A stretch of 64,000 nt of DNA, from assembly GCF_024700885.2 (NCBI RefSeq), contig NZ_CP117016.1, one strand, 5' to 3'. Below, in pieces: positions 1,903-52,217 of the stretch (position 1 is its first letter; every line of letters starts with the position of its first letter). Source of the stretch: Escherichia coli (GTDB taxonomy: Bacteria > Pseudomonadota > Gammaproteobacteria > Enterobacterales > Enterobacteriaceae). The notes below the pieces were generated by a model, which was not told the DNA's origin, made no database searches, and saw only the letters and a program-made list of their open reading frames with translations. A program made the position numbers and the translations under genes.

Positions 1903-3444
1903 ATGCCTTATCTACTTGAAATGAAGAACATTACCAAAACCTTCGGCAGTGTGAAGGCGATTGATAACGTCAGCTTGCGGTTGAATGCTGGCGAAATCGT
2001 CTCACTCTGTGGGGAAAATGGGTCTGGTAAATCAACGCTGATGAAAGTGCTGTGTGGTATTTATCCCCATGGCTCCTACGAAGGCGAAATTATTTTTGCG
2101 GGAGAAGAGATTCAGGCGAGTCACATCCGCGATACCGAACGCAAAGGTATCGCCATCATTCACCAGGAATTGGCCCTGGTGAAAGAATTGACCGTGCTGG
2201 AAAATATCTTCCTGGGTAACGAAATAACCCACAATGGCATTATGGATTATGATCTGATGACGCTACGCTGTCAGAAGCTGCTCGCACAGGTCAGTTTATC
2301 CATTTCACCTGATACCCGCGTTGGCGATTTAGGGCTTGGGCAACAACAACTGGTTGAAATTGCCAAGGCACTTAATAAACAGGTGCGCTTGTTAATTCTC
2401 GATGAACCGACAGCCTCATTAACTGAGCAGGAAACGTCGGTTTTACTGGATATTATTCGCGATCTACAACAGCACGGTATCGCCTGTATTTATATTTCGC
2501 ACAAACTCAACGAAGTCAAAGCGATTTCCGATACGATTTGCGTTATTCGCGACGGTCAGCACATTGGTACGCATAATGCTGCCGGAATGAGTGAAGACGA
2601 TATTATCACCATGATGGTCGGACGAGAGTTAACCGCGCTTTACCCTAATGAACCACATACCACCGGAGATGAAATATTACGTATTGAACATCTGACGGCA
2701 TGGCATCCGGTTAATCGTCATATTAAACGAGTTAATGATGTCTCGTTTTCCCTGAAACGTGGCGAAATACTGGGTATTGCCGGACTCGTTGGTGCCGGAC
2801 GTACCGAGACCATTCAGTGCCTGTTTGGCGTGTGGCCCGGACAATGGGAAGGAAAAATTTATATTGATGGCAAACAGGTAGATATTCGTAACTGTCAGCA
2901 AGCCATCGCCCAGGGGATTGCGATGGTACCCGAAGACAGAAAGCGCGACGGCATCGTTCCGGTAATGGCAGTTGGTAAAAATATTACCCTCGCCGCACTC
3001 AATAAATTTACCGGCGGTATTAGCCAGCTTGATGACGCGGCAGAGCAAAAATGTATTCTGGAATCAATCCAGCAACTCAAAGTTAAAACGTCGTCCCCCG
3101 ACCTTGCTATTGGACGTTTGAGCGGCGGCAATCAGCAAAAAGCGATCCTCGCTCGCTGTCTGTTACTTAACCCGCGCATCCTCATTCTTGATGAACCTAC
3201 CAGGGGTATCGATATTGGCGCGAAATACGAGATCTACAAATTAATTAACCAACTCGTCCAGCAGGGTATTGCCGTTATTGTCATCTCTTCCGAATTACCT
3301 GAAGTGCTCGGCCTTAGCGATCGTGTACTGGTGATGCATGAAGGGAAACTAAAAGCCAACCTGATAAATCATAACCTGACTCAGGAGCAGGTGATGGAAG
3401 CCGCATTGAGGAGCGAACATCATGTCGAAAAGCAATCCGTCTGA
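1903..3444 (+). CDS. xylG: D-xylose ABC transporter ATP-binding protein
   Basis: 513 aa with two ABC cassettes (Walker [10 protein letters not shown] and a second GLVGAGRTE); position after xylF. Confidence 0.93.
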
Positions 3445-16698: not shown

Positions 16699-18195
16699 AT
16701 GACGCAATACTGGCTGGGGTTAGATTGTGGCGGTAGCTGGCTGAAAGCCGGGCTGTATGACCGCGAAGGCCGGGAGGCAGGCGTGCAACGCCTGCCGCTG
16801 TGCACATTAAGCCCGCAGCCAGGCTGGGCAGAGCGCGATATGGCAGAACTGTGGCAATGCTGCATGGCTGTCATTCGCGCCCTGCTTACCCATTCCGGCG
16901 TTAGCGGGGAACAAATTGTCGGTATCGGCATCTCCGCACAGGGAAAGGGCTTGTTTTTGCTGGATAAAAACGACAAGCCGCTCGGTAACGCCATTTTGTC
17001 CTCGGATCGCCGGGCGATGGAAATCGTTCATCGCTGGCAGGAAGATGGCATCCCGGAAAAACTCTACCCGCTGACCCGACAAACCTTGTGGACCGGGCAT
17101 CCGGTGTCGCTGTTACGCTGGCTGAAAGAGCACGAACCGGAACGCTACGCGCAAATTGGCTGCGTGATGATGACGCACGACTACCTGCGCTGGTGTTTAA
17201 CCGGCGTCAAAGGTTGCGAAGAGAGCAATATTTCTGAGTCCAATCTCTACAACATGAGTCTTGGGGAATATGACCCGTGCCTCACCGACTGGCTTGGGAT
17301 CGCTGAAATCAACCACGCCCTGCCGCCTGTTGTCGGATCTGCCGAAATCTGCGGGGAGATCACCGCTCAGACAGCCGCACTGACCGGTCTGAAAGCGGGT
17401 ACGCCCGTTGTCGGCGGCCTGTTTGATGTGGTTTCCACCGCACTCTGTGCCGGGATCGAAGACGAATTTACCCTTAATGCGGTGATGGGCACCTGGGCGG
17501 TGACCAGCGGAATAACCCGTGGTTTACGTGACGGTGAAGCGCATCCGTATGTCTATGGTCGCTACGTTAACGATGGTCAATTTATCGTTCACGAAGCCAG
17601 CCCCACCTCTTCCGGCAACCTCGAATGGTTTACCGCACAGTGGGGAGAAATCTCGTTTGATGAGATTAACCAGGCCGTTGCCAGCTTGCCAAAGGCCGGG
17701 GGCGATCTCTTTTTCCTGCCGTTCCTGTACGGCAGCAACGCCGGACTCGAGATGACCAGCGGTTTCTACGGGATGCAGGCCATTCACACCCGCGCACACC
17801 TGTTGCAGGCCATTTATGAAGGGGTGGTATTCAGCCATATGACCCATCTCAACCGGATGCGCGAACGTTTTACTGATGTGCACACCCTGCGCGTCACTGG
17901 CGGCCCGGCGCATTCCGATGTCTGGATGCAAATGCTGGCGGACGTCAGCGGGCTGCGTATCGAACTGCCGCAGGTGGAAGAAACCGGCTGTTTTGGCGCG
18001 GCGCTTGCCGCCCGCGTCGGCACCGGGGTTTATCGCGATTTCAGCGAAGCCCAACGTGATTTACAGCACCCAGTACGCACCCTGCTGCCGGATATGACCG
18101 CACATCAGCTTTACCAACAAAAATACCAACGCTATCAGCATCTCATTGCCGCACTTCAGGGCTTTCACGCCCGCATCAAGGAGCACACATTATGA
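16699..18195 (+). CDS. lyxK: L-xylulose/3-keto-L-gulonate kinase
   Basis: 498 aa; FGGY sugar kinase; operon position. Confidence 0.9.
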   Translation: MTQYWLGLDCGGSWLKAGLYDREGREAGVQRLPLCTLSPQPGWAERDMAELWQCCMAVIRALLTHSGVSGEQIVGIGISAQGKGLFLLDKNDKPLGNAILSSDRRAMEIVHRWQEDGIPEKLYPLTRQTLWTGHPVSLLRWLKEHEPERYAQIGCVMMTHDYLRWCLTGVKGCEESNISESNLYNMSLGEYDPCLTDWLGIAEINHALPPVVGSAEICGEITAQTAALTGLKAGTPVVGGLFDVVSTALCAGIEDEFTLNAVMGTWAVTSGITRGLRDGEAHPYVYGRYVNDGQFIVHEASPTSSGNLEWFTAQWGEISFDEINQAVASLPKAGGDLFFLPFLYGSNAGLEMTSGFYGMQAIHTRAHLLQAIYEGVVFSHMTHLNRMRERFTDVHTLRVTGGPAHSDVWMQMLADVSGLRIELPQVEETGCFGAALAARVGTGVYRDFSEAQRDLQHPVRTLLPDMTAHQLYQQKYQRYQHLIAALQGFHARIKEHTL

Positions 18196-18854
18196 GCCGA
18201 CCACTTCTGCAACTGGCCCTCGACCACTCATCACTTGAAGCCGCGCAGCGCGACGTGATGCTGTTAAAAGACAGCGTCGATATCGTCGAAGCGGGCACTA
18301 TTCTCTGTTTAAACGAAGGGCTTGGCGCGGTGAAAGCCTTGCGCGAACAGTGCCCGGATAAAATCATCGTTGCCGACTGGAAGGTCGCCGACGCGGGTGA
18401 AACGCTCGTGCAACAGGCATTTGGCGCAGGCGCTAACTGGATGACCATCATCTGCGCCGCGCCGCTCGCGACGGTGGAAAAAGGCCACGCCATGGCGCAA
18501 CGCTGCGGTGGTGAAATTCAGATAGAACTGTTCGGCAACTGGACGCTGGACGACGCCCGCGACTGGCATCGTATTGGCGTGCGGCAGGCCATTTATCATC
18601 GCGGTCGTGACGCGCAAGCCAGCGGGCAACAGTGGTGCGAAGCCGATCTGGCACGTATGAAGGCGCTTTCCGATATCGGCCTTGAGCTTTCCATTACCGG
18701 CGGGATTACCCCTGCTGACCTGCCGCTGTTTAAAGATATCCGCGTGAAAGCGTTTATTGCCGGGCGGGCGCTGGCAGGCGCAGCAAATCCGGCGCAGGTG
18801 GCTGGCGATTTCCATGCGCAAATCGACGCTATCTGGGGAGGCGCGCGTGCGTAA
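18192..18854 (+). CDS. sgbH: 3-keto-L-gulonate-6-phosphate decarboxylase
   Basis: 220 aa; overlaps the lyxK stop. Confidence 0.9.
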
Positions 18855-19707
18855 TCATCCGTTAGGTATTTATGAAAAAGCGCTGGCGAAAGATCTCTCC
18901 TGGCCTGAGCGGCTGGTGCTGGCGAAAAGCTGCGGTTTTGATTTTGTCGAAATGTCGGTGGATGAAACCGACGAACGTTTGTCACGCCTTGACTGGAACG
19001 CCGCACAACGTGCTTCACTGGTCACTGCGATGATCGAAACGGGTGTTGCCATTCCGTCAATGTGCCTGTCCGCACATCGTCGCTTTCCCTTTGGCAGCCG
19101 GGACGAGGCGGTGCGCGAACGGGCGCGGAAAATCATGAGTAAAGCGATTCGCCTGGCGCGCGATCTCGGCATTCGCACCATTCAACTGGCGGGTTATGAC
19201 GTCTATTACGAAGACCACGACGAAGGCACCCGGCAACGTTTTGCTGAAGGGCTGGCGTGGGCGGTCGAACAGGCGGCGGCATCACAAGTAATGCTGGCGG
19301 TGGAGATTATGGATACCGCGTTTATGAACTCCATCAGCAAATGGAAAAAATGGGACGAGATGCTCGCCTCGCCGTGGTTCACCGTCTACCCGGACGTCGG
19401 CAACCTCAGCGCCTGGGGCAATGATGTTTCCGCCGAACTGAAACTGGGCATTGACCGTATTGCCGCAATCCACCTGAAAGACACCCGGCCAGTGACCGAG
19501 CAAAGCCCCGGACAGTTCCGTGATGTGCCGTTTGGCGAAGGCTGCGTCGATTTCGTTGGCATCTTCAAAACGCTGCATGAACTGAACTATCGCGGTTCTT
19601 TCCTGATTGAGATGTGGACCGAAAAAGCCAAAGAGCCGGTGCTGGAGATTATTCAGGCGCGGCGCTGGATTGAAGCGCGTATGCAGGAGGCTGGATTTAT
19701 ATGTTAG
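18847..19707 (+). CDS. sgbU: L-xylulose-5-phosphate 3-epimerase
   Basis: 286 aa from an in-frame GTG at 18847 ([15 protein letters not shown]…), 8 nt overlap with sgbH. Track start at 18757 rejected as an extension through sgbH. Confidence 0.85.
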
Positions 19708-20427: not shown

Positions 20428-21243
20428 CTACGAATTGATATGTTCCTTGCTGTAACGTCGCTTCCACGCAGCTGGCGTTAAACCGGTGTGTTTGCGAAAA
20501 ATCTGCCGGAAATAGCCAACGTCATTAAACCCACACAACGCCGCCACTTCCGTGAGCGATCGCGCTTCGCTAATTAACAGCTTTTCGGCTTCGCGCACTC
20601 GCTGGCGATGGATTGCTTCTGTTAACGTCAGATGAAACACCCGCCGATAGACGCGCCCAAGATAATCGGCATTGCAGTACAGCTCGCGGGCTAAAAGCGC
20701 CGTGGAAAGCGGGCGATGATATTGCGTGCGGATCAGTTTCTGCGCTTTCCAGGCAAGCGTGGTACCTGCGGCATCGGCCTGTTCATCAAGACGCGCGTCA
20801 CGGGTGAGTTGCTGCAAAATCAGCAGCACAATAAACTCCAGCGCCGGAGTGCGTTGATGCTTTTCCTGTTCGCTTAAGAACTGGCGAAACAGGGCCACCA
20901 GCGCCTGCGGATCGGCAACCTTCGTTTGTTGCGGCACGCTAAGATGAGTGAGCCAGCGCGGGTCGCTATCCGGCGCTTTAACCTCAAAATGCAGCCAGTA
21001 AAATTTGAGATCGGCGGGAAAATCCTCTACCCCAACATGCTGTCGGTTCGGCCAGAGTAATAAACTCTCTCCCGCATCGACCAGAAATATCCGCTCTTCT
21101 TCCTGAATCGTTAATCGACCTTTTTCGACAAAGATAATTTCCCATGACTCCAGCCGCCTTGCCGGATGCCTCCCTACGCCACGGGAAATAAATAATCCAC
21201 CATTTTGCACTTTAATCGGTAACGTCATGGATAATTCGAGCAT
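20428..21243 (-). CDS. AraC-family transcriptional regulator (accessory)
   Basis: 271 aa; C-terminal AraC HTH (…LTEVAALCGFNDVGYFRQIFRKHTGLTPAAWKRR); N-terminal cupin-like sugar-sensing half. True start may be Met 6. Confidence 0.8.
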   Translation of the reverse strand: MLELSMTLPIKVQNGGLFISRGVGRHPARRLESWEIIFVEKGRLTIQEEERIFLVDAGESLLLWPNRQHVGVEDFPADLKFYWLHFEVKAPDSDPRWLTHLSVPQQTKVADPQALVALFRQFLSEQEKHQRTPALEFIVLLILQQLTRDARLDEQADAAGTTLAWKAQKLIRTQYHRPLSTALLARELYCNADYLGRVYRRVFHLTLTEAIHRQRVREAEKLLISEARSLTEVAALCGFNDVGYFRQIFRKHTGLTPAAWKRRYSKEHINS

Positions 21244-21289
21244 TGATATGTAATTTCCCGCTTATTCATTAATGATTAAACACATTACC

Positions 21290-21308
21290 TTTTGATTATT
21301 AATCAAAA
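21290..21308. promoter_or_regulatory. Perfect 9-1-9 palindrome in the divergent AraC/transporter promoter region
   Basis: TTTTGATTA-T-TAATCAAAA read directly from the sequence; candidate operator. Confidence 0.3.
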
Positions 21309-21468
21309 ACATTAATTTCACCTGATCCATTTCACACTTTTAAATTCAGGTCGGAATCGTCACCTTTTTTTACTCTTTTCTCGCCTTGTTGATATTCCCG
21401 TTCACGGCAGAATTAATCATGTCATTGCAATAAAACTAAAAATTGCTCCCTATTCACGAGGAATATCT

Positions 21469-22869
21469 ATGACCTCTACACCGATTACTACCGCTGATAT
21501 CGCTAAAGGTAAAATTGACGATGCGTTATCTGTACGGGAAAAAATAGGCTACGGCCTGGGTGACGCAGGCGGCACCGTAATAACTTGCCTGATCATGAAC
21601 TTTCTCACCTTTTTCTACACCGACGTTTTTGGCTTAACTCCGGCGCTGGTCGGCACGCTGTTTATTGCACTGCGCGTGTTTGATGCCATCTCCGACCCGG
21701 TGATGGGCGTCATTGCCGACCGGACGCAAAGTCGCTGGGGGCGCTTTCGTCCGTGGCAGTTATGGATTGCCATTCCCATCGGCATTATCGGCATCCTGAC
21801 GTTCACCGTGCCAGATGCCAGCATGGGAGTAAAAATCGCCTGGGCGTTCGGCACTTACCTGCTCCTTTCAGTCGGTTATACCGCCATCAACGTGCCGTAC
21901 TGCGCGCTGATCAACACCATGACCACCCGCCACAATGAAGTGATCTCCTGCCAGTCCTGGCGATTCGTTCTCTGCGGCGTAGCGGGATTTCTGGTTTCGG
22001 TTGGCCTGCCGTGGATGGTGGATCTCTTCGGTCAGGGTAATGCCGCGCGCGGCTATCAACTGGGCGTCGGCGTATTGTGCGCCATCGCTGTGGTGATGTT
22101 CCTGTGCTGTTTCTTCTGGGTTCGTGAACGGGTACCACTCTCCACAATGGGGAAATTTACCCTGCGCGAACATCTTGCCGGGCTGCGAAACAACGACCAA
22201 CTGCTGCTGATGCTGGTCATGTCTTTCCTGCTGATTAACGTCTTTAACATTCGCGGCGGTGGGTATATGTACTTCATTACCTACGTCTTACAAGGCAGTA
22301 CGGGCTACACGTCGCTGTTCTTCACCATGGTCACCTTCGCCTCCATTATCGGCTCGGTGATTGTCAGCCCGTTAACGCGACGTTTCGATACCGTCAAAAT
22401 TTACTACTACACCAACCTGCTCCTCGCCGCGCTGGCGGTGTTGATGTGGTTCCTGCCTTCTGGCCCGGCTTATCAAACGCTGTGGCTGGCGGTGATCCTC
22501 GGTAATGGCGTGATTCTTGGCTTCACATTGCCATTGCACTTCTCATTGATGGCCTTTGCCGATGACTACGGCGAGTGGAAAACCCGCGTACGTTCTTCCG
22601 GCATGAACTTCGCCTTCAATCTGTTTTTCATCAAACTGGCCTGGGCCTCCAGCGCCGGGATCATCAGCCTGCTGTTTATTTTTGTCGCCTACCAGCCAGG
22701 CGTGGAAAACCAGACCACCAGTTCGCTTGGCGGGATCACGGCGATGGAAACATTACTGCCTGCGCTATTCCACCTGCTGCTGGCAGGGGCGATCCGCTTT
22801 TGCAAACTCAATAACCCTATGATGTCACGCATTGCTACCGACCTGCGTCAGCGTCATGTACAGCCTTAA
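21469..22869 (+). CDS. GPH-family (glycoside-pentoside-hexuronide) cation symporter
   Basis: 466-aa 12-TM-like protein with the GPH/MelB-like signature near the N-terminus (…GYGLGDAGG…[13 protein letters not shown]…). Confidence 0.8.
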
Positions 22870-22879
22870 GGAGCACAAG

Positions 22880-24844
22880 ATGAACATTTCGGAAGTCGAT
22901 CTGCATAAACTGACGGTCAGCGATCCGTTCCTCGGTCAGTACCAACAACTGGTCCGCGATGTGGTGATTCCTTATCAGTGGGACGCCTTGAACGATCGTA
23001 TCCCAGAAGCGGAACCCAGCCATGCGATTGAAAACTTTCGCATTGCCGCAGGACTGCAAGACGGTGAATTTTACGGGATGGTGTTTCAGGACAGCGACGT
23101 CGCCAAATGGCTGGAAGCGGTAGCCTGGTCGCTGTGCCAGAAGCCGGATGCCGAACTGGAAAAAACCGCTGACGAGGTAATCGAACTGGTCGCTTCCGCC
23201 CAGTGCGAAGATGGCTATCTCAATACTTACTTTACGGTAAAAGCGCCCGAAGAACGCTGGAGCAATCTGGCGGAGTGTCATGAACTTTACTGCGCCGGTC
23301 ATCTGATTGAAGCCGGAGTCGCCTTCTTCCAGGCCACGGGAAAACGGCGCTTGCTGGAAGTGGTTTGCCGTCTGGCCGATCATATCGACAGCGTATTTGG
23401 TCCAGGTGAAAGTAAGTTACACGGTTATCCTGGTCACCCGGAAATTGAACTGGCACTAATGCGCCTGTATGAAGTGACCGAAGAGCCGCGCTACCTGGCG
23501 CTGACAAACTATTTTGTCGAACAGCGTGGTGCGCAACCGCACTATTACGACCAGGAATATGAAAAGCGCGGGCAGACCTCGCACTGGCACACCTACGGCC
23601 CGGCGTGGATGGTGAAAGATAAAGCCTACAGCCAGGCGCATTTGCCCATCGCACAGCAACAAACCGCCATCGGACATGCAGTACGCTTTGTATATCTGAT
23701 GACTGGCGTCGCACATCTGGCGCGTTTAAGTCACGATGAAAGCAAGCGTCAGGACTGCCTGCGGCTGTGGAACAATATGGCCCAGCGTCAGTTATATATT
23801 ACCGGCGGCATTGGCTCACAAAGCAGCGGCGAAGCGTTCAGCAGCGATTACGATCTGCCGAATGACACGGTATACGCTGAAAGCTGCGCCTCCATCGGCC
23901 TGATGATGTTTGCCCGGCGAATGCTGGAAATGGAAGGCGACAGTCAATATGCCGATGTGATGGAGCGCGCGCTGTACAACACTGTGCTCGGCGGCATGGC
24001 ACTGGATGGCAAACATTTCTTCTATGTGAATCCGCTGGAAGTACATCCAAAATCGCTGAAATTCAACCATATCTACGATCACGTTAAGCCGATCCGCCAG
24101 CGTTGGTTTGGTTGCGCTTGTTGTCCGCCAAATATCGCCCGCGTGCTAACCTCGATTGGTCATTATCTCTACACGCCGCGTGAAGATGCGTTGTATATCA
24201 ACATCTACGCAGGAAACAGCATGGAAGTGCCGGTAGAAAATGGCACGCTGCGCCTGCGGGTTAGCGGAAACTATCCGTGGCAGGAGCAGGTGACGATTGC
24301 GGTTGAATCGCCCCAGCCGGTGCGTCATACGCTGGCTTTACGTCTGCCGGACTGGTGCACACAGCCGCAGATCATATTGAATGGGGAAGAGGTCGAGCAG
24401 GATATTCGTAAAGGGTATTTGCACATTACCCGCGAATGGCAGGAGGGCGATATGCTGAATCTGACTTTGCCGATGCCGGTACGCCGCGTTTACGGTAACC
24501 CGCTGGTGCGTCACGTCGCCGGAAAAGTGGCGATTCAGCGCGGCCCACTGGTGTATTGCCTGGAACACGCCGACAACGGCGAGTCACTGCATAACCTGTG
24601 GCTGCCCGCCGATGCGCCATTTACGACATTTGAAGGTAATGGATTGTTCCGCCATAAGATCTTAATCCAGGCTCCGGGTTACCGGTATGAACAGAGCAAT
24701 CCAGAGCAGCAACCGCTGTGGCATTACGACAGCGCGCCAGCCAAACGCCAGCCGCAAACCCTGACCTTTATCCCGTGGTTTAGCTGGGCCAACCGGGGTG
24801 AAGGCGAAATGCGGATCTGGGTGAATGAGGAAACCAGCGCATGA
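22880..24844 (+). CDS. Glycoside hydrolase family 127-like (DUF1680, beta-L-arabinofuranosidase-type)
   Basis: 654 aa from MNISEV with an aaggag RBS; Cys-rich motif FGCACCPPNIARV and the HELYCAGHLIE region are characteristic of GH127. Family assignment from memory. Confidence 0.75.
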   Translation: MNISEVDLHKLTVSDPFLGQYQQLVRDVVIPYQWDALNDRIPEAEPSHAIENFRIAAGLQDGEFYGMVFQDSDVAKWLEAVAWSLCQKPDAELEKTADEVIELVASAQCEDGYLNTYFTVKAPEERWSNLAECHELYCAGHLIEAGVAFFQATGKRRLLEVVCRLADHIDSVFGPGESKLHGYPGHPEIELALMRLYEVTEEPRYLALTNYFVEQRGAQPHYYDQEYEKRGQTSHWHTYGPAWMVKDKAYSQAHLPIAQQQTAIGHAVRFVYLMTGVAHLARLSHDESKRQDCLRLWNNMAQRQLYITGGIGSQSSGEAFSSDYDLPNDTVYAESCASIGLMMFARRMLEMEGDSQYADVMERALYNTVLGGMALDGKHFFYVNPLEVHPKSLKFNHIYDHVKPIRQRWFGCACCPPNIARVLTSIGHYLYTPREDALYINIYAGNSMEVPVENGTLRLRVSGNYPWQEQVTIAVESPQPVRHTLALRLPDWCTQPQIILNGEEVEQDIRKGYLHITREWQEGDMLNLTLPMPVRRVYGNPLVRHVAGKVAIQRGPLVYCLEHADNGESLHNLWLPADAPFTTFEGNGLFRHKILIQAPGYRYEQSNPEQQPLWHYDSAPAKRQPQTLTFIPWFSWANRGEGEMRIWVNEETSA

Positions 24845-24915
24845 TGCGACGCTTAACGCGTCTTATCAGTATCAACATATCGGTGCGGTTGCCCGCCAAC
24901 CATCGAAACGCGAGA

Positions 24916-25326
24916 TTAAACGCCCGGCAATACACGCCGGGCAGCTTCCGCCAGAAACGCACTTCTGTTGGCATAGTCTGGGTTATTGCGCACGTAGGTA
25001 TCAATCTTGTTCAGTAATCTTTTTGGCATCGTAATATTGATACGTTCAGCCCGACCTTCGAACTGATTCATATTGATATCCACCAGCAACCATTGCCCGC
25101 CAATAAAGTCCTGCGCACGCTGGACCAGATGTGTTTCCACAGAGCCTGGAAGCGGCAACTCTTCATTCATCTCGCATAAGGTTTCGAAGTGCGCGACCAG
25201 TGCACTTCGCGCATCCTGGAAAGCGTAGTCCAGCGTATCACCAGCAAAATAACAGCCTGGAACATCAGGGAAAAAACCGCTGGCGCTGCCGTCAGGATCA
25301 CTGTGGATATAGGCGGGATAAAACAT
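24916..25326 (-). CDS. hicB: HicB-family antitoxin
   Basis: 136 aa; HicB-like N-domain plus C-terminal ribbon-helix-helix-like segment (RINITMPKRLLNKID…RSAFLAEAARR); 16 bp after hicA. Confidence 0.7.
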   Translation of the reverse strand: MFYPAYIHSDPDGSASGFFPDVPGCYFAGDTLDYAFQDARSALVAHFETLCEMNEELPLPGSVETHLVQRAQDFIGGQWLLVDINMNQFEGRAERINITMPKRLLNKIDTYVRNNPDYANRSAFLAEAARRVLPGV

Positions 25327-25342
25327 ATTGCCTCCTGAAATT

Positions 25343-25528
25343 TTAAAATGTTAAACCAGCCTGACGCCCAATTTGCGCCAGCGTACCGGGCTTAATATCT
25401 TTTTTAGGGTGCGGAACCGTCACCAGACCCGGATGAACAGGGTGGCGGAACTGATGACGACTGCCACGGGTTCGAATATGTTCCCAGCCATGCTGCTTCA
25501 GGATGGCGATCACGTCTGCACTTTTCAC
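25343..25528 (-). CDS. hicA: HicA-family mRNA interferase toxin
   Basis: 61 aa; HicA/YcfA-like (…HGWEHIRTRGSRHQFRHPVHPGLVTVPHPKKDIKPGTLAQIGRQAGL). Confidence 0.7.
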   Translation of the reverse strand: MKSADVIAILKQHGWEHIRTRGSRHQFRHPVHPGLVTVPHPKKDIKPGTLAQIGRQAGLTF

Positions 25529-26000
25529 ATCCCTGCCCTTCCATGATTATACACACGATACACACACAATTAGCGATAACAATCACGATAGCGCGATTTA
25601 TATGGGCCGTCAGGGGGATAAAGTTGACTCAGGAATGCCGCTCGGAAGAAGAATAACGGTGTGCAGTAATTGGTAGAAAATATGCGAGGATGCTCGCAAT
25701 TTACATATAACTCATAGTATTAGGTGTTAAAAAATCTGTATTAGATTATCCATGCGATATCGAAGCTAGTCTTGCTATAGCTCCAACTCGTATTCATTGA
25801 ACGTTTAAAACAACCAATAAAAGACACTGTTTTATTTTCTTGATAAATATCAAGTTTGTTTCACCATTGTATTTACAATGTGCAAACATTATTTTTTGTG
25901 TGTTATACATTAACTATGACCAATGATAAAGCGTTAATATATAAATATTTTCTATATTTTTATCAAACGCATTTTTATTAAATATATATAAGGAGTTATA

Positions 26001-27080
26001 ATGTCTATGGAGTTTATAGATAAGCTGAATTCATTATCCGCAAAAATAAAACAACAAGCCGGAGTCATTGAAACGGAGGAAGCTACCAAAAATGCTTTCG
26101 TAATGCCGTTCATTAACAATGTGTTAGGTTATGATGTCTTTGATCCTACCGAAGTTATCCCAGAGTTTGTATGCGATATTGGAACGAAGAAAGGTGAAAG
26201 GATTGACTATGCAATCTTAAAAAATAGCGAGGTTCAGATTCTCATTGAATGCAAAAAAATTGGCGATCCTCTAAATATAAATCATGCTTCACAGCTTTTT
26301 CGATACTTTCATGTAACAAATGCAAGAATATCTATTCTAACCAATGGACAAGTTTATAAATTTTTTACTGATTTAGAAGCACCTAATAAAATGGATGAAA
26401 AACCATTTCTTGAGATAGATCTACTTGACTTAGACGAAACAGTTGTTCCCGAGATAAAGAAGCTTACTAAATCAGCATTTGATTTGGAATCAATAATTAA
26501 TGCTGCAGGTGAATTAAAATATGTTAGTTTAATTAAAAAAGTTCTCCATGCACAAATGAATAATCCTGAAGAGGATTTTGTAAAATTCTTTGCAGCAAGA
26601 ATTTATGAAGGTATGTTAACACAAAAGGTAAAAGATACGTTTGCAAAATTAACAAAGAAAGCTGCCAATCAATATATTAACTCTCAAATAAACGAAAGAT
26701 TGAAATCGGCAATAGGTGGTGGGTCATTATCTGTAATTGATTCGAATTCACACAATGAGGAAGTTGAATGTATTAATAAAGAAGAAACCGATATTGCCAC
26801 TACTATGGAGGAACTTGAAGGATTTCATATTGTTAAAGCTATAGTTCGCGTAGTGCTTGATGCACCACGAATAGTCCACAGAGATACAAAAAGCTATTTT
26901 GGTATACTTGTAGATGACAATAATCGAAAGCCACTCTGTAGATTACATTTCAATCGAAATCAAAAATATATTGGTTTATTTGACTTAGAGAAAAACGAAA
27001 CCCGCCATCCTATTGAATCTCTCGATGATATTTATTCTTTCAGCGATGAGTTGAAAGCGACTGCCGCTTTATACAACTAA
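26001..27080 (+). CDS. Orphan HsdR-N-like PD-(D/E)xK nuclease-domain protein (candidate defence gene)
   Basis: 359 aa; aaggag RBS 5 nt upstream; N-terminal region carries D69 (RIDYAIL) and E83-x-K85 (ILIECKK) in the arrangement of type I restriction enzyme R-subunit N-terminal domains. Strongly AT-rich gene and upstream region. C-terminal about 100 aa of unknown function. Confidence 0.7.
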   Translation: MSMEFIDKLNSLSAKIKQQAGVIETEEATKNAFVMPFINNVLGYDVFDPTEVIPEFVCDIGTKKGERIDYAILKNSEVQILIECKKIGDPLNINHASQLFRYFHVTNARISILTNGQVYKFFTDLEAPNKMDEKPFLEIDLLDLDETVVPEIKKLTKSAFDLESIINAAGELKYVSLIKKVLHAQMNNPEEDFVKFFAARIYEGMLTQKVKDTFAKLTKKAANQYINSQINERLKSAIGGGSLSVIDSNSHNEEVECINKEETDIATTMEELEGFHIVKAIVRVVLDAPRIVHRDTKSYFGILVDDNNRKPLCRLHFNRNQKYIGLFDLEKNETRHPIESLDDIYSFSDELKATAALYN

Positions 27081-27083
27081 AAC

Positions 27084-27116
27084 AAAGGCAGACAACTATT
27101 AACGTTGCCTGCCTTT
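27084..27116. terminator. Bidirectional hairpin terminator between the nuclease-like gene and aldB
   Basis: aaaggcagacaa…ttgcctgccttt inverted repeat in the 40-bp convergent spacer. Confidence 0.5.
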
Positions 27117-34367: not shown

Positions 34368-37300
34368 ATGAGCGGAAAACCGGCGGCGCGTCAGGGCGAC
34401 ATGACGCAGTATGGCGGTAGCATTGTTCAGGGTTCAGCCGGGGTACGTATTGGTGCCCCCACCGGCGTGGCCTGTTCGGTGTGCCCCGGCGGGGTGACGT
34501 CCGGCCATCCGGTCAATCCGCTGCTCGGTGCGAAGGTCCTTCCCGGCGAAACCGACCTTGCCCTGCCCGGCCCGCTGCCGTTCATCCTCTCCCGCACCTA
34601 CAGCAGTTACCGGACAAAAACGCCCGCGCCGGTGGGGAGCCTCGGCCCCGGCTGGAAAATGCCCGCGGATATCCGCTTACAGCTGCGCGATAACACACTG
34701 ATACTCAGTGATAACGGCGGCAGGAGCCTGTATTTTGAGCACCTGTTTCCCGGTGAGGACGGTTACAGCCGCAGCGAGTCACTCTGGCTGGTGCGCGGCG
34801 GCGTGGCGAAACTGGATGAAGGTCACCGGCTGGCCGCACTCTGGCAGGCACTGCCGGAAGAGCTTCGCCTGAGTCCGCATCGTTATCTGGCGACGAACAG
34901 TCCGCAGGGGCCGTGGTGGGTACTCGGCTGGTGTGAGCAGGTGCCGGAGGCGGATGAGGTGCTGCCCGCGCCGCTGCCGCCGTACCGGGTACTGACCGGG
35001 CTGGTGGACCGCTTCGGGCGCACACAGACGTTTCACCGTGAGGCTGGCGGCGAAATCACCGGCGTGACGGATGGCGCAGGCCGTCACTTCCGGCTGGTAC
35101 TGACCACGCAGGCGCAGCGGGCAGAAGAAGCCCGGCAGCAGGCCATTTCCGGCGGGACGGAACCGTCCGCTTTTCCTGATACCCTGCCGGGTTACACCGA
35201 ATATGGCCGGGACAACGGCATCCGTCTGTCTGCCGTGTGGCTGACACACGACCCGGAATATCCGGACAACCTGCCAGCCGCGCCGCTGGTACGCTATGGC
35301 TGGACGCCGCGTGGCGAACTGGCGGCGGTGTATGACCGCAGCAATACACAGGTGCGCAGCTTTACTTACGATGATAAATACCGGGGCCGGATGGTGGCGC
35401 ACCGTCACACGGGCCGACCGGAAATCCGTTACCGTTACGACAGTGACGGGCGGGTGACAGAACAGCTAAACCCGGCGGGCTTAAGCTACACGTATCAGTA
35501 TGAGAAAGACCGCATCACCATCACCGACAGCCTGGACCGCCGTGAAGTCCTGCACACGCAGGGCGAAGGCGGGCTGAAGCGGGTGGTGAAAAAGGAACAC
35601 GCGGACGGCAGCGTCATGCAGAGTCAGTTTGACGCGGTGGGCAGGCTTAAGGCACAGACGGATGCCGCAGGCCGGACGACTGAGTACAGCCCGGATGTGG
35701 TGACGGGACTCATCACGCGCATCACCACACCGGATGGCAGGGCATCGGCATTTTACTATAACCACCACAACCAGTTAACGTCAGCCACCGGGACTGACGG
35801 GCTGGAGTTGCGCCGGGAATATGATGAATCCGGCCGTCTGATTCAGGAAACCGCACACAACGGCGATATCACCCGCTACCGTTATGATAATCCACACAGT
35901 GACTTACCCTGCGCAACGGAAGATGCCACCGGCAGCCGGAAAACCATGACATGGAGCCGTTACGGTCAGTTGCTGACCGTCACTGACTGTTCCGGTTATG
36001 TAACCCGTTATGACCATGACCGTTTTGGTCAGGTGACGGCGGTGCACCGCGAGGAAGGGCTGAGTCAGTACCGCGCATACGACAGCCGTGGACAGTTAAT
36101 TGCGGTGAAAGACACGCAGGGCCATGAAACGCGGTATGAATACAACGCCGCCGGTGACCTGACCGCCGTCATTGCCCCGGACGGCAGCAGAAACGGGACA
36201 CAGTACGATGCGTGGGGAAAGGCCATCCGTACCACGCAGGGCGGTCTGACGCGCAGTATGGAATACGATGCTGCCGGACGGGTCATCCGCCTGACCAGTG
36301 AAAACGGCAGCCACACCACCTTCCGTTACGATGTACTTGACCGGCTGATACAGGAAACCGGCTTTGACGGCCGCACACAGCGTTATCACCACGACCTGAC
36401 CGGCAAACTTATCCGCAGCGAGGATGAGGGGCTGGTCACCCACTGGCACTATGACGAAGCAGACCGCATCACGCACCGCACCGTGAAGGGTGAACCGGCA
36501 GAGCAGTGGCAGTATGATGAACGCGGCTGGCTGACACAAATCAGCCATCTCAGCGAAGGCCACCGGGTGACGGTGCATTACGGGTATGATGAGAAAGGCC
36601 GCCTGACCGGTGAGCGCCAGACGGTGCATCACCCGCAGACGGAAGCACTGCTCTGGCAGCATGAAACCAGACACGCTTACAACGCGCAGGGACTGGCGAA
36701 CCGCTGTATACCGGACAGCCTGCCCGCCGTGGAATGGCTGACTTACGGCAGCGGCTGGCTGGCAGGCATGAAACTCGGCGACACACCGCTGGTGGAGTAT
36801 ACCCGCGACCGCCTGCACCGGGAAACGCTGCGCAGCTTCGGCCGTTATGAACTCACCACCGCTTATACCTCTGCCGGGCAGTTACAGAGCCAGCACCTGA
36901 ACAGCCTGCAGTATGACCGCGATTACACCTGGAACGACAACGGCGAACTCATCCGCATCAGCAGCCCGCGACAGACCCGGAGTTACAGCTACAGCGACTC
37001 CGGCAGGCTGACCGGCGTCCACACCACCACCTCAAATCTGGATATCCGCATCCCGTATGCCACGGACCCGGCAGGCAACCGCCTGCCCGACCCGGAGCTG
37101 CACCCGGACATCACCCTCAGCATGTGGCCGGATAACCGTATCGCCCGTGACGCGCACTATCTTTACCGGTATGACCGTCACGGCAGACTGACGGAGAAAA
37201 CCGACCTCATCCCGGAAGGGGTTATCCGCACGGACGATGAGCGGACTCACCAGTACCATTACGACAGTCAGCACCGGCTGGTGCACTACACGCGGACACA

Positions 37301-38555
37301 ATATGCAGAGCCGCTGGTCGAAAGTCGCTATCTTTACGACCCGCTGGGCCGCAGGGTGGCAAAACGGGTATGGCGGCGTGAACGGGACCTGACGGGCTGG
37401 ATGTCGCTGTCACGGAAACCGGAAGTGACCTGGTACGGCTGGGACGGCGACCGGCTGACCACGATACAGAACGACAGAACCCGCATCCAGACGGTTTATC
37501 AGCCGGGGAGCTTCACGCCACTCATCAGAGTTGAAACCGCCACCGGTGAGCTGGCGAAAACGCAGCGCCGCAGCCTGGCGGATGCGCTTCAGCAGTCCGG
37601 CGGCGAAGACGGTGGCAGTGTGGTGTTCCCGCCGGTGCTGGTGCAGATGCTCGACCGGCTGGAAAGTGAAATCCTGGCTGACCGGGTGAGTGAGGAAAGC
37701 CGCCGCTGGCTGGCATCGTGCGGCCTGACGGTGGAGCAGATACAAAACCAGATGGACCCGGTGTACACGCCGGCGCGAAAAATCCACCTGTACCACTGCG
37801 ACCATCGCGGCCTGCCGCTGGCGCTTGTCAGCACGGAAGGGGCAACAGAATGGTGCGCAGAATACGATGAATGGGGCAACCTGCTGAATGAAGAGAACCC
37901 GCACCAGCTGCAGCAGCTCATCCGCCTGCCGGGTCAGCAGTATGATGAGGAGTCAGGCCTGTATTACAACCGCCACCGCTATTATGACCCGCTGCAGGGG
38001 CGGTATATCACTCAGGATCCGATTGGGCTGAAGGGGGGATGGAATTTTTATCAGTATCCGTTAAATCCGGTTCAGTATATAGATTCAATGGGACTGGCAT
38101 CTAAATATGGACACTTAAATAATGGCGGATATGGAGCGAGACCCAACAAACCGCCTACGCCCGATCCAAGTAAGTTGCCAGACATAGCGAAACAATTAAG
38201 ACTGCCATATCCTATTGACCAGGCCAGTAGTGCGCCTAATGTTTTCAAAACATTCTTCAGAGCATTAAGTCCTTACGATTACACACTGTATTGCAGGAAG
38301 TGGGTAAAACCCAATCTGACTTGTACGCCGCAGGATGATCCCCAGTATCCAGGGATGGAGACAAAGACAGCAAGTGATTACCTGCCACAGACAACTTGGC
38401 CAACAACTCAATTACCACCAGGATATACTTGTGCAGAACCCTATTTATTCCCAGACATTAATAAACCCGATGGGCCAGCAACAGCAGGGATAGATGATTT
38501 GGGTGAAATTTTAGCTAAAATGAAACAGAGAACATCGAGAGGAATAAGAAAATGA
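34368..38555 (+). CDS. rhsA: Rhs-family polymorphic toxin (RhsA locus) with a divergent C-terminal toxin domain
   Basis: 1395 aa; N-terminal PAAR-like region, long YD-repeat core (…YRYD…, …YDxxGR…), the core-end motif …[31 protein letters not shown]…, then an AT-rich, compositionally distinct C-terminal tip of about 155 aa. Confidence 0.9.
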
Positions 38556-39121
38556 AAAGAGCTTTGTTCTTTTTGCTGATGATATTCGTTAGTTTTGGTG
38601 TTATAGCTAATTGCGAAACACAAGCTAAAGATCAAGATTGCTTTACCATTTTCACTAAGGGTACTATTTTTTCCGCGTTTCCTGTCTTAAATAATAAAAC
38701 CATGTGGAGATGGTATCAGAATGAGGACATAGGTGAGTATTATTGGCAAACAGAGCTTGGTATATGTAAAAATAACAAATTCACACCAAGCGGGGCGAGA
38801 CTCTTAATTCTCGTCGGATCACTACGCCTTAATGAAAATCATGCAACCAAAGGAACGTTGCAGGAGTTGCTAAATACAGCAGAAAAAACGGCGTTTCTCG
38901 GCGATCGGTTTAGAAGTTATATAAGAGCGGGTATCTATCAAAAAAAGAGCAGTGATCCAGCTCAGTTGTTGGCAGTCCTTGATAATTCAATCATGGTTAA
39001 ATATTTTAAAGATGAGAAGCCAACTTATGCTCGAATGACAGCACATCTCCCGAACAAAGATGAGTCTTACGAATGTTTAACAAAAGTACAGCATGAACTG
39101 CTTCGTAGTGAAGAAAAATAA
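38552..39121 (+). CDS. Putative cognate immunity protein of the rhsA C-terminal toxin
   Basis: 189 aa; start overlaps the rhsA stop (ATGA); AT-rich; N-terminal hydrophobic leader ([19 protein letters not shown]) suggests export. Role inferred from position only. Confidence 0.5.
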
Positions 39122-39289
39122 AATCTCTTCCTGAGAAAATAAATTAACTATTCGAAAAAATATGTTCTTAATGGGTATCCAGGAACACCAGAAGGTCGAT
39201 TTGGAAAAATGGATTCCGATGGTAAGAATATCATATATTCTGAATGTAATGTTTTACCCACAACTTTTGAGATTCGATAGGTGTAGAGC

Positions 39290-39637
39290 ATGAGAAACTC
39301 ACTAATATTACTTATTATGATATTGTTTACAATATCACACTCAGTATTTGGAAAAGAAAATTCAGCGGAAATTTTAGTAAATAGTCGTGAAATGGCTTTG
39401 GAATTATCATATGTTTATATTAAATATATATACGGGAAAGAAAAAGCAGAATTTCAGAAACCATATAGTATTACAGATGACAATAATTGTTGGAAAATCG
39501 AGGGAAAACAACCGAAGACGTTAGGAGGAAATTTTACAATACTAATAGCGAAAAAAGATGGGCAAGCGTTGGATGTAATACACAAAATAATCCACTGTTC
39601 AGACGATTCAAATATTTTACCAAGGTGTGTTTCGTAA
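39290..39637 (+). CDS. Small secreted immunity-like protein
   Basis: 115 aa; signal-peptide-like N-terminus; paralogous to the frameshifted ORF at 41240-41507. Confidence 0.45.
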   Translation: MRNSLILLIMILFTISHSVFGKENSAEILVNSREMALELSYVYIKYIYGKEKAEFQKPYSITDDNNCWKIEGKQPKTLGGNFTILIAKKDGQALDVIHKIIHCSDDSNILPRCVS

Positions 39638-39799
39638 CTATTTTGTGTACAATATGACTCTACATATCGACGAAAAAACCACTTGATTTGACAGGAACAC
39701 ATTCAAAAAAATTTCTTTTTCATTTCAGGAGCGATTTTCATCTGTTACTTGAAGTATCTGTGAGATTAAGTGACTCCCCCTAACGTCGTACTAAATAGT

Positions 39800-40100
39800 A
39801 ATTACTGGCCATACCGGGAGCAGTATTCGGCGCTTCCCACATGCAGCAGAATAACCGCATCAGCGAAGATGTATTGTATTTTTACTATCACAATGTGTAC
39901 GGACGGTTTATGGAAAAGAATGAACATTAGATACGCGATGCGGCGGCAGGTTACACGGTTATCACTACGATAGCCAATACTGGCTGGTGCATTACCGCCG
40001 TGAACAATAGGACGCCGTACTGCTGGAAATTTCTTACCTTTATGACTCCCCGCGCCGCCGTATTGGGAAACGGGAAGCAATCAAGATGAGGCTGATATAA
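39800..40100 (+). pseudogene. Degraded Rhs core remnant 1
   Basis: Translates in pieces to …QNNRISEDVLYFYYHNVYGRFMEKNEH*… and …HYDSQYWLVHYRREQ*…YLYDSPRRRIGKREAIK…, alignable to rhsA residues …[26 protein letters not shown]…[13 protein letters not shown]…[13 protein letters not shown]…; in-frame stops. Confidence 0.55.
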
Positions 40101-40297
40101 TGTGCGGAATGCCTGAGTATTTTTAGAATAGGGGGGTAATATGTTTGATAGAATATATCTTGGTGATCGAGCAATAAAAAATTGAATTTGATTTATGGAG
40201 TAAACAAATTAGAATTCAGGTTAATTTAATCTCAAGGATAGCCTATGGTACAACAGAATGGAATTTTTATGATAATGAAGACTTAGAAGATGGTTAT

Positions 40298-40540
40298 TTG
40301 GTATTTTCAGATGTTAGTTTCTTCAATATAACTCCTAATGGCTCTATTCCAGATGATTATATAATTTCAATAATTACAGATAATGTCAATGTTGAATATT
40401 TTGAATCAACTATAGTTGCTGTTGGTCAAATTCGAAACACAAATGTTGGTGACATTGATAATATTGGTGAATGTCAAATTTTCATCAGGTATAAAGACAG
40501 CTGGATTGAGAATAAACTCAAAGAAAAAATAATTGAATAA
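40298..40540 (+). CDS. Hypothetical small protein (TTG start in track)
   Basis: 80-aa ORF in the AT-rich spacer after Rhs remnant 1; no recognisable motif. Confidence 0.25.
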   Translation: MVFSDVSFFNITPNGSIPDDYIISIITDNVNVEYFESTIVAVGQIRNTNVGDIDNIGECQIFIRYKDSWIENKLKEKIIE

Positions 40541-40639
40541 CCATGTTATGTATAGACATTTTAGATGGAACGAACCAGAGGAAGGCATGCCTCCGACTTG
40601 GGTTATATGGGCACGGAGTTTTAGTGTAGTGAACTCAAC

Positions 40640-40710
40640 GACGCAAACCGAATAACCTGCCGCTGGCGCTTATCAGCACGTAAGGGACAACAGCGTAGTA
40701 CGTAGAATAA
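40640..40710 (+). pseudogene. Degraded Rhs core remnant 2
   Basis: cctgccgctggcgcttatcagcacgtaagggacaacag… matches the rhsA core segment cctgccgctggcgcttgtcagcacggaaggggcaacag… at about 37810. Confidence 0.45.
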
Positions 40711-40792
40711 TCCTACCCACGTAGTATGGACACAGGCCTAAGCGAGGTTCTGGTTTTCAAATTTTTCGGGAGTTAGATGATTGGAGGAACAG

Positions 40793-41158
40793 ATGATAAG
40801 AATCGCATTTTTAATAACCAATAAATTTCTTGAGATAGATAGTACCACTCTTGCTGGATATGATTTTAGCGGGATGAATCTACATCGTGCCACCCTCAAT
40901 GGTTATTGTCTTGATGGGGCGAAATTTGAAAAAACTCATTTAAGAAATGTAATGATTCAACATACATCAACTAGAAATGCTGTCTTTCGCAATGCGGCTC
41001 TGATGAATGCTATTCTGAATAACTCAGATTTCACTGGAAGTGATTGTAGTAATTCAAGGTCAATAGGTGAAAATTTTAAAGCAATAGATAATCATGGGAA
41101 AGATATAATAAATGGAAAAGGATTGCCTAATGTTTGCAAAATACATGACAACGTATAA
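40793..41158 (+). CDS. Pentapeptide-repeat protein
   Basis: About 121 aa from MIRIAF (ggagga RBS); tandem pentapeptide-like repeats (…ATLNGYCLDGAKFEKTHLRNVMIQHTSTRNAVFRNAALMNAILNNSDFTGSDCSNS…). Confidence 0.5.
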   Translation: MIRIAFLITNKFLEIDSTTLAGYDFSGMNLHRATLNGYCLDGAKFEKTHLRNVMIQHTSTRNAVFRNAALMNAILNNSDFTGSDCSNSRSIGENFKAIDNHGKDIINGKGLPNVCKIHDNV

Positions 41159-41239
41159 GAAAATATTATTCAGAACCTATGTGATTGTATCTTTATTTTT
41201 ACATACAACACATGGGCGCAGTGTAATAATATTATTATA

Positions 41240-41507
41240 ATGCGCAAGTATGAAAGTGAGGGGAAATACACCGTTAGAAATTTGGTCAAAAATAAAGCTA
41301 TAGCATTGGAATTAGCTGAGATGTATGTTAAAAATCGTTATGGACATGATGCCGAAGAAGAAAAAAAAACCATACAAAATCATGGAATTACCAACAAGTT
41401 GGATTGTTGAAGGCACCATTGAATCAGACCAAATTGCTGGTAGGGTTTTTATTATAGAAATAGGCAAAAATGACGGGAGAATTCTAAATTTTGGCCACGG
41501 AAAATAA
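41240..41507 (+). pseudogene. Frameshifted paralog of the 39290-39637 immunity-like gene
   Basis: Frame 1 from ATG 41240 reads MRKYESEGKYTVRNLVKNKAIALELAEMYVKNRYGHDAEEEKK, then an A9 homopolymer (41361-41369) shifts the frame into the track ORF 41325-41507 (…PYKIMELPTSWIVEGT…GKNDGRILNFGHGK). Removing one A restores an intact reading frame of about 88 codons. Confidence 0.5.
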
Positions 41508-41611
41508 GTATGTAAGGATAAACAAACATCGTGTGTGCTGATGGCAGAGTAGGTGGAGGACTCCAGACAGTCAAACGATAGAAAAAGATAGTCTTTATGG
41601 AGGTTCCTGCA

Positions 41612-42454
41612 ATGTCGAATACATACCAGAAAAGAAAGGCAAGTAAAGAGTATGGTTTATACAATCAATGTAAGAAACTAAATGATGATGAATTATTTCG
41701 CTTACTTGATAATCGCAATTCATTGAAAAGGATTTCATCTGCCAGAGTATTGCAGCTAAGAGGTGGGCAAGACGCTGTTAGATTGGCAATTGAATTCTGC
41801 GCTGACAAAAATTATATCCGTAGAGATATAGGAGCATTTATACTCGGGCAAATAAAAGTTTGCAAAAAATGCGAAGATAGCGTTTTTAATATTTTAAAAA
41901 AGATGGCACTGAATGATAAAAGTGCTTGCGTTCGAGCTACAGCAATCGAGTCAACTGCTCAGCGATGCAAGAAAAACCCAATTTATTCACCTAAAATAGT
42001 AGAACAATCTCAAATTACTGCTTTTGATAAATCGGCTAATGTCAGACGTGCTACGGCATTTGCTATTTCTGTTATCAATGATAAAGAAACAATTCCACTA
42101 TTGATTAATCTGTTAAAAGATCCAAATGGAGATGTCAGAAACTGGGCCGCATTTGCAATAAATATCAATAAATATGATAATAGTGATATTAGGGATTATT
42201 TTGTGGAGATGCTTCAGGATAAAAATGAGGAAGTCCGTATTGAAGCAATAATCGGACTTTCCTACAGAAAAGATAAAAGGGTTTTATCTGTTTTATGCGA
42301 TGAGTTAAAAAAAAATACTGTTTATGATGATATCATTGAAGCTGCGGGTGAATTAGGTGATAAAACGCTACTTCCTGTTTTAGATACTATGTTGTACAAG
42401 TTTGATGACAATGAAATTATAACTTCCGTTATTGATAAGCTGAAGCGTTCATAG
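41612..42454 (+). CDS. yibA: HEAT-repeat protein YibA
   Basis: 280 aa from MSNTYQKRKASKEYGLYNQ…; recognised as the K-12 rhsA-adjacent YibA. Track start is 5 codons upstream. Confidence 0.85.
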   Translation: MSNTYQKRKASKEYGLYNQCKKLNDDELFRLLDNRNSLKRISSARVLQLRGGQDAVRLAIEFCADKNYIRRDIGAFILGQIKVCKKCEDSVFNILKKMALNDKSACVRATAIESTAQRCKKNPIYSPKIVEQSQITAFDKSANVRRATAFAISVINDKETIPLLINLLKDPNGDVRNWAAFAININKYDNSDIRDYFVEMLQDKNEEVRIEAIIGLSYRKDKRVLSVLCDELKKNTVYDDIIEAAGELGDKTLLPVLDTMLYKFDDNEIITSVIDKLKRS

Positions 42455-42495
42455 CGTGAGTTGCCTATGCACAGTGAGGTATTCCCGCCGGCACG

Positions 42496-43305
42496 GTGCA
42501 GATGCTCGACCGGCTGGAAAGTGAAATCCTGGCTGACCGGGTGAGTGAGGAAAGCCGACGCTGGCTGGCATCGTGCGGCCTGACGGTGGCGCAGATGCAA
42601 AACCAGATGGACCCGGTGTACACGCCGGCGCGAAAAATCCACCTGTACCACTGCGACCATCGCGGCCTGCCGCTGGTGCTTATCAGCACGGAAGGGGCAA
42701 CAGAATGGTGCGCAGAATACGATGAGTGGGGCAACCTGCTGAATGAAGAGAACCCGCACCAGCTGCAGGGGCGGTATATCACTCAGGATCCGATTGGACT
42801 GAAGGGGGGATGGAATTTTTATCAGTATCCGTTGAATCCGATAACTGATATTGACCCGTTGGGATTAGCGACCTGTTTATACAGCATAACTTTAGGTATG
42901 CTTTCATGCGTTTCAGATACGCCAAGTGATGATAATTCTTATGGTGTGCTTACTATTTCAGTCGCCTCTGGTAATAATGGTAATAATATGCAATGTAAAA
43001 ATAATCCTGGTTGTACACACTTACAAAATAGAGGCCCAATACCTCCAGGGGTATGGAGCTGGAATGTTAATGGTCCTGGAGCAACTAATAGAAAACCTAA
43101 TGGTATACGTTTAGTACCGTCAGCAAATACAGAAACGTATAATCGTGATGGATTTTTAACACATAGTTGTTTAAACGCTTTTGGTCCATCTTTAGGACCT
43201 CGATTCTGTTCCGAGGGTTGTATAACTGGTTCATCTAATGACATGCAAAAATTAAATGAGCTAATATTTTCAGAGCCAGATAGCACATTAACAGTGACGG
43301 ACTAG
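42496..43305 (+). CDS. yibJ: Orphan Rhs C-terminal fragment with Cys/Gly-rich toxin-like tip
   Basis: 269-aa ORF; its first about 100 aa match the end of the rhsA core (…[16 protein letters not shown]…[18 protein letters not shown]), with a 28-codon deletion spanning [12 protein letters not shown]. Symbol from position. Confidence 0.65.
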
Positions 43306-43309
43306 AAAT

Positions 43310-43705
43310 ATGGCAAGGTTATTAACAATTGTGCTTTTTTTCTCTATTTCTGCGAATGCAGTTACTGTAAACCAATTTCAGAGAGAGTTGGATTTGGCAG
43401 ACAAGGCAATATTATGGGCACTAATATCAGCCAGTACCCAAGAGGGACGAAAAGCGTGTTCACTTAGCTATTTTTCATGTAAAGCCGCAGAGGCTGAACT
43501 CGGACTGGCATATATGGCTGCTAATGATAACAAGGCATTTCTCACATCCTTATCTAGAATAATGATGTACAAAATAGATGCTGGACTTTCCGAATCCTAT
43601 ACATGCTATTTATTAAGCAAGGGAAAGATCATAAGACCATATCTGAAGAATCTAAATCCACACCAACTTGTCGCTGATTGCATTGAAACTGTAAATAAAA
43701 GATAA
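43310..43705 (+). CDS. yibG: Small secreted protein, putative immunity partner of the yibJ fragment
   Basis: 131 aa; signal-peptide-like N-terminus (MARLLTIVLFFSISANA); 4 bp after yibJ. Symbol assigned by position only. Confidence 0.4.
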   Translation: MARLLTIVLFFSISANAVTVNQFQRELDLADKAILWALISASTQEGRKACSLSYFSCKAAEAELGLAYMAANDNKAFLTSLSRIMMYKIDAGLSESYTCYLLSKGKIIRPYLKNLNPHQLVADCIETVNKR

Positions 43706-52174: not shown

Positions 52175-52217
52175 ATGCAGCTTCTGCGCTTATATCAAGG
52201 AATAGAGAGCATCAATA

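Follow-up and report, generated by a model that had tools for sequence, protein, structure and literature searches.

The classical translationally coupled overlapping gene pairs of E. coli operons include trpE/trpD and trpB/trpA. The enzyme pair of sgbH and sgbU is encoded a second time in E. coli, in the same order, by ulaD-ulaE of the L-ascorbate (ula) operon. In K-12, sgbU (b3582, WP_001350555.1) is described with a GTG start, an 8-nt overlap with sgbH, a 7-nt overlap with sgbE and a product of 286 aa; the GTG start and the sgbH overlap are thus already known, as the standard annotation of sgbU in K-12 and RefSeq. Here we examine the same junction in another E. coli genome, within a stretch of 64,000 nt that we call the window, and find it to match K-12 in each of these respects. 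We hold with high confidence that the main start of sgbU is this GTG (here GTG18847, after its first nucleotide in the window), yielding the 286-aa protein.

The sgbH/sgbU junction in the window

The two genes lie on the plus strand, as do all the features of the junction given below. The upstream gene, sgbH (18192..18854; named ulaD by PGAP), encodes a 3-keto-L-gulonate-6-phosphate decarboxylase of 220 aa (WP_000089469.1) that ends in ...IWGGARA* and matches NCBIfam NF009831 over its full length (E 9.5e-135). Its reading frame closes with ATC TGG GGA GGC GCG CGT GCG TAA, the TAA stop codon falling at 18852-18854. The downstream gene, sgbU (18847..19707), encodes an L-ribulose-5-phosphate 3-epimerase (L-xylulose-5-phosphate 3-epimerase) of 286 aa (WP_001469354.1). 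By direct reading of the window, a GTG (decoded as fMet) stands at 18847-18849 in the sgbU frame, which continues GTG CGT AAT CAT CCG TTA GGT ATT TAT GAA AAA GCG CTG; the ORF opened by this GTG has 286 codons and ends at 19707. The downstream start therefore overlaps the upstream stop on the same strand: the genes have in common the octamer GTGCGTAA (18847-18854), the last 8 nt of sgbH, in which the sgbH stop is formed from sgbU codons 2-3 (CGT AAT, Arg-Asn). The Shine-Dalgarno sequence for sgbU, GGGGAGG at 18835-18841, leaves a 5-nt spacer to the GTG and lies inside the upstream coding sequence, being built from the Trp-Gly-Gly codons of SgbH (TGG GGA GGC).

The initial annotation had placed the sgbU start at the GTG 8 nt before the sgbH stop, and had noted that the longest ORF in the sgbU frame begins inside sgbH. 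Both statements are correct: RefSeq, family profiles, orthologues, the Shine-Dalgarno sequence and selection agree on the former, and the longest ORF does open inside sgbH, at 18757, with 316 aa. It had also taken the codon at 18757 for an ATG, and here it was mistaken; 18757-18759 is TTG, and the only upstream in-frame ATG is at 18814-18816, 33 nt 5' of the GTG.

The RefSeq/PGAP coding sequence for sgbU in the window strain is exactly 18847..19707. The identical start and 8-nt overlap are annotated in K-12 MG1655 and in six further E. coli genomes, which were picked across the identity range. A 1.7-kb query around the junction matched E. coli strain 1190 (NZ_CP023386.1) at 100% identity and further E. 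coli genomes, in their thousands, at 93.5-97%. Window coordinates taken over from NZ_CP023386.1 are exact at sgbU and 1 nt off at mtlD/mtlR and lldP/lldR, from which it follows either that there is a 1-nt indel relative to NZ_CP023386.1 within 19800-49477 or that the window comes from a near-identical genome.

Protein families place the N-terminus at the same point. When the 316-aa ORF was scanned against NCBIfam, TIGR00542 and NF009689 both matched from residue 32, the codon after the GTG, so that the family profiles begin at the RefSeq start. Both matches are full-length and exceed the curated cut-offs: TIGR00542 scored 516 bits (cut-off 272; profile positions 1-279 of 279; E 1.9e-155) and NF009689 509.5 bits (cut-off 200; profile positions 2-285 of 286, with position 2 aligned to the codon after the GTG). 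An alignment of SgbU orthologues, the check proposed in the initial annotation, gave the same answer. All 26 orthologues, from about 20 genera (among them Enterobacter, Pantoea, Kluyvera, Mangrovibacter, Hafnia, Budvicia, Yersinia, Serratia, Erwinia and Xenorhabdus), share the N-terminus placed at the GTG; they begin M-R, and R2, H4, P5 and G7 through L13 are invariant. K-12 departs from this pattern at residue 5, which is Gln (CAG) there, whereas it is Pro in the window (18859-18861) and in all 26 aligned orthologues. Among relatives, a structure has been solved only for the paralogue UlaE (3CQH, E 2.9e-107), and residue 16 of its chain aligns with residue 3 of SgbU; SgbU, like the solved UlaE, has its N-terminus a few residues before PLGIYEKAL. 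A decarboxylase gene (SgbH/UlaD) lies upstream and a 4-epimerase gene (SgbE/UlaF) downstream. SgbU is predicted from homology and annotation to be the 3-epimerase converting L-xylulose 5-phosphate to L-ribulose 5-phosphate.

The neighboring junctions are similarly compact. The initial annotation listed overlaps of 1-4 nt at four other junctions of the window. This holds for lyxK/sgbH (ATGA, 4 nt, 18192..18195, plus strand), for mtlD/mtlR (1 nt, TAATG at 49476-49480) and for lldP/lldR (1 nt, TAATG at 59898-59902), but not for sgbU/sgbE, where the overlap is 7 nt (ATGTTAG, 19701..19707, plus strand). By annotation, lldR/lldD and selA/selB overlap by 4 nt each. The annotated overlap of xylG/xylH, at 23 nt (window about 3422-3444, record 224745-224767), is unusually long for the window. 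In the yiaK-S (sgb) operon, lyxK, sgbH, sgbU and sgbE are packed with overlaps of 4, 8 and 7 nt, an arrangement that suits stoichiometric, coupled synthesis.

Beyond these junctions, several features of the window stand apart from sgbU. Between sgbE and aldB (window 20428-27100) are genes for a HicA/HicB toxin-antitoxin pair, a type I restriction endonuclease, a GH127 glycoside hydrolase, an MFS transporter and an AraC-type regulator; of these, all that K-12 retains here is a set of pseudogene fragments of the regulator. Between yibL and lldP (window 52200-58000, record 170243-175972) lie a DUF3251 gene and a gene of 5.7 kb whose product is a YadA-like trimeric autotransporter adhesin. An RHS element occupies about 34400-44000, headed by a 4.2-kb RHS core protein gene, behind which come several toxin and immunity genes that are frameshifted or partial (tlde1-domain, Imm57, NTF2-fold immunity, and pentapeptide repeat fragments).

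The sgb genes themselves are not universal in the species. The sgbH-sgbU region found no match in 570 of 5426 complete E. coli genomes, one match (H30) consisted of a truncated sgbH beside a MipA/OmpV gene, and the sgbH of E. coli 1002W03 (L086 93-755) has an internal stop and is annotated as a pseudogene. In part of E. coli the sgb operon is dispensable and decaying.

Upstream start codons and the frame under selection

Two codons upstream of GTG18847 could in principle serve as the start, and they differ in what can be said for them. The TTG at 18757..18759, at -90, is the first start codon after an in-frame stop and opens the 316-aa ORF. It has no Shine-Dalgarno sequence, its upstream region giving a duplex of only -0.1 kcal/mol with the 16S 3' end, against -11.3 kcal/mol for GTG18847. 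Moreover, close relatives have stops in its frame (E. coli SCPM-O-B-8794 at -48, E. albertii at -63) that cut it off, which effectively refutes it; we assign this start a negligible probability.

The ATG at 18814..18816 would give a protein of 297 aa, extended N-terminally by 11 residues. As a start codon ATG is stronger than GTG, and a minority annotation in nr does use this one (cluster P0002, 297 aa, 38 members), whereas the large protein-database clusters of SgbU are of 286 aa with 1172-2349 members each. The ATG is furthermore present in 10 of the 10 Escherichia sequences sampled, so no loss within the genus excludes it. In the other frame, however, this ATG is part of CAT GCG, the codons for His-Ala in FHAQI, a conserved motif of SgbH, and the ATG is missing from several Klebsiella, Raoultella and Citrobacter loci that have the same 8-nt junction (L011, L014, L016, L019 and L022). 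Pairing of its upstream region with the anti-Shine-Dalgarno sequence is weak (-5.9 kcal/mol; spacer length about 11 nt), and the extension is covered by no family profile or orthologue. As the main start we consider ATG18814 very unlikely.

Variation among strains bears on both of these upstream codons. We compared 10 Escherichia sequences, namely the window, K-12, E. albertii and seven other E. coli. Over the 102 nt upstream of the GTG, codon variants were 17 synonymous and 7 nonsynonymous in the sgbH frame, against 4 synonymous and 22 nonsynonymous in the sgbU frame; from +9 to +110 the sgbU frame had 9 synonymous variants and 1 nonsynonymous. Third positions of sgbH codons, which would be second positions in an extension in the sgbU frame, account for 18 of the 25 upstream variable sites, and third positions of sgbU codons for 7 of the 8 downstream ones. 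The would-be extension accordingly differs between strains (reading STPSGEAS in some): the 11 residues from ATG18814 vary radically through changes that are synonymous in sgbH, and the 30 residues from TTG18757, which carry the 4 synonymous and 22 nonsynonymous variants, likewise match no profile. Judged by these counts, the reading frame under purifying selection switches at GTG18847.

A further possibility is that GTG18847 is the main start and that a minor proteoform begins at an upstream codon, either ATG18814 or a GTG at -6 found in K-12. INRI-seq, a cell-free form of retapamulin profiling with synthetic transcripts that span -30 to +150 (PMC9825163), lists two non-annotated peaks for K-12 sgbU in its Table S3: a CTG at -14 (3 of 5 replicates, 37.0 CPM) and the in-frame GTG at -6 (2 of 5 replicates, 35.7 CPM). 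As far as this table goes, it shows that ribosomes load in vitro at the sgbU Shine-Dalgarno region without upstream translation. Peaks are assigned to codons at 15 +/- 3 nt in this method, and near-start calls also appear beside well-established starts (thrA +6; PMC9825163). With their 5' ends cut at -30, the transcripts were translated in vitro, and the in vivo Ribo-RET value for sgbU in the comparison table of the same study is 0. The -6 GTG itself is specific to K-12 (L002 1747-1770), where it arises from a GGC to GGT change that is synonymous in sgbH; it abuts the Shine-Dalgarno sequence with zero spacer (GGAGGTG), and the window strain has GCG, not GTG, at this position. We regard dual initiation as very improbable, about as much so as a main start at ATG18814. 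If it were true, some of the 3' end of sgbH would code in two frames.

Other published sources had little to offer on this point. The TRAINSPOTTER N-terminomics supplements have no entry for sgbU, sgbH or sgbE, and in the parts of those supplements and of the INRI-seq comparison table available to us we found neither an in vivo N-terminal peptide nor a start-site footprint for SgbU. A full-text literature search found no papers on the sgbU start codon, and a search on SgbH, SgbE and L-xylulose returned only regulon and genome papers.

We also considered a programmed frameshift or gene fusion, and rejected it, as the SgbH-SgbU and SgbU-SgbE fused proteins in the databases are metagenome singletons and probable sequencing frameshifts. 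These singletons (P0007, P0008 and P0012) combine the SgbH domain PF00215 with the SgbU domain PF01261, or the latter with the SgbE domain PF00596, and most likely reflect assembly frameshifts at the 8-nt and 7-nt overlaps.

For the window strain, then, the 286-aa model of SgbU starting at GTG18847 is the right one, and neither the 297-aa nor the 316-aa alternative should replace it.

The junction across species

Since predicted N-termini could share a single annotation bias, we compared the DNA itself at 80 loci, one per species, taken from genome assemblies. In alignment with the E. coli GTG, 62 of the 80 loci have ATG and 9 have GTG (68-71 of 80 for the two together); the GTG users are E. 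coli, E. albertii, one other enterobacterium and several Pasteurellaceae. At the remaining 9 loci (Pantoea species, Hafnia and Erwinia mallotivora) an ATG stands 1-4 codons upstream. An in-frame stop occurs 6-30 nt upstream of the start at 25 loci, and at 21 of these there is no start codon between the stop and the start, so that no longer form is possible there. Some of the stops are very close: -24 in Kluyvera and in Kosakonia oryzendophytica, -21 in Enterobacter sp. ENT03, -9 in Brenneria, and -6 in Cedecea and at the second Klebsiella indica locus.

A SgbH-like gene lies upstream at 62 of the 80 loci, and at every one of these 62 the start codon falls within -3 to +8 nt of the sgbH stop. 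As far as these genomes can tell, the tight sgbH/sgbU junction is no chance feature. Its exact form nevertheless varies. The 8-nt overlap, ATGCGTAA or GTGCGTAA, is found in Escherichia, Klebsiella, Raoultella, Citrobacter, one of the two Pluralibacter loci and Tolumonas, all but the first of which have the form ATGCGTAA; this type arises because sgbU codons 2-3 (CGT AAY, Arg-Asn) give G CGT AA when read in frame with sgbH. An ATGA overlap of 4 nt is found in Hafnia, Brenneria, the second Pluralibacter locus, Erwinia mallotivora and most Pantoea, and one of 1 nt (TAATG or TGATG) in Kluyvera, Superficieibacter, Kosakonia, Mangrovibacter and Xenorhabdus. In Enterobacter, Lelliottia, Serratia, Erwinia and Yersinia the genes are separated by a spacer of 1-3 nt. 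Most loci with a SgbH-like upstream gene retain TGGGGA(G) 5' of the start, with TGGAGA or TGGAGG in Serratia and Pectobacterium.

The junctions of Klebsiella, Citrobacter and Raoultella resemble that of Escherichia both in the 8-nt overlap and in the Arg-Asn second and third codons that form the sgbH stop, but these genera start with ATG, whereas Escherichia (E. coli and E. albertii) starts with GTG and has Arg in place of His as the penultimate SgbH residue. Because Escherichia differs from these neighbors only by ATG to GTG, we take the GTG to be a derived, weaker start at a conserved position. The Escherichia-specific GTG derives from an ancestral ATG, ATGCGTAA becoming GTGCGTAA, and this one A-to-G change also puts Arg in place of His next to the end of SgbH. 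Beyond annotation hygiene the start-site result has little significance; one minor biological point is that Escherichia has weakened the ancestral sgbU ATG to GTG.

Probable translational coupling and comparison with known pairs

Ribosomes translating sgbH would terminate 5-8 nt past the sgbU start, and might then either re-initiate at sgbU or keep its start site unfolded for new 30S subunits. Such coupling would tie together the yields of the consecutive pathway enzymes of lyxK-sgbH-sgbU-sgbE. Given the overlap and what is generally known of overlapping operon genes, translational coupling of sgbH and sgbU is a reasonable inference. The RNA around the junction has a predicted fold of -27.2 kcal/mol, no more stable than shuffled sequences (z = +0.92); with so unremarkable a fold, nothing suggests obligatory coupling through a masking hairpin, or a start site that needs unfolding.

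The ulaD-ulaE junction is alike in its parts. UlaD, like SgbH, has Trp-Gly at its end, and the ulaE Shine-Dalgarno sequence lies at or just after those codons; UlaE, like SgbU, starts a few residues before PLGIYEKAL. The two junctions differ in that ulaE starts with ATG, after a 9-nt spacer from the ulaD stop (TAA GGAGCGGAT ATG), where sgbU overlaps sgbH. The K-12 ulaE start reads ATG TTG TCC AAA CAA ATC CCG CTT GGC, making the N-terminus of UlaE two residues longer than that of SgbU.

With the class of trpE/trpD and trpB/trpA, sgbH/sgbU shares the same-strand arrangement, the start that overlaps the stop, and the Shine-Dalgarno sequence inside the upstream coding sequence. It departs from the classical coupled pairs in the length of the overlap, 8 nt as against the common 1 or 4 nt. 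The sgbH/sgbU junction belongs, all the same, to the ordinary class of operon genes that overlap and are probably coupled.
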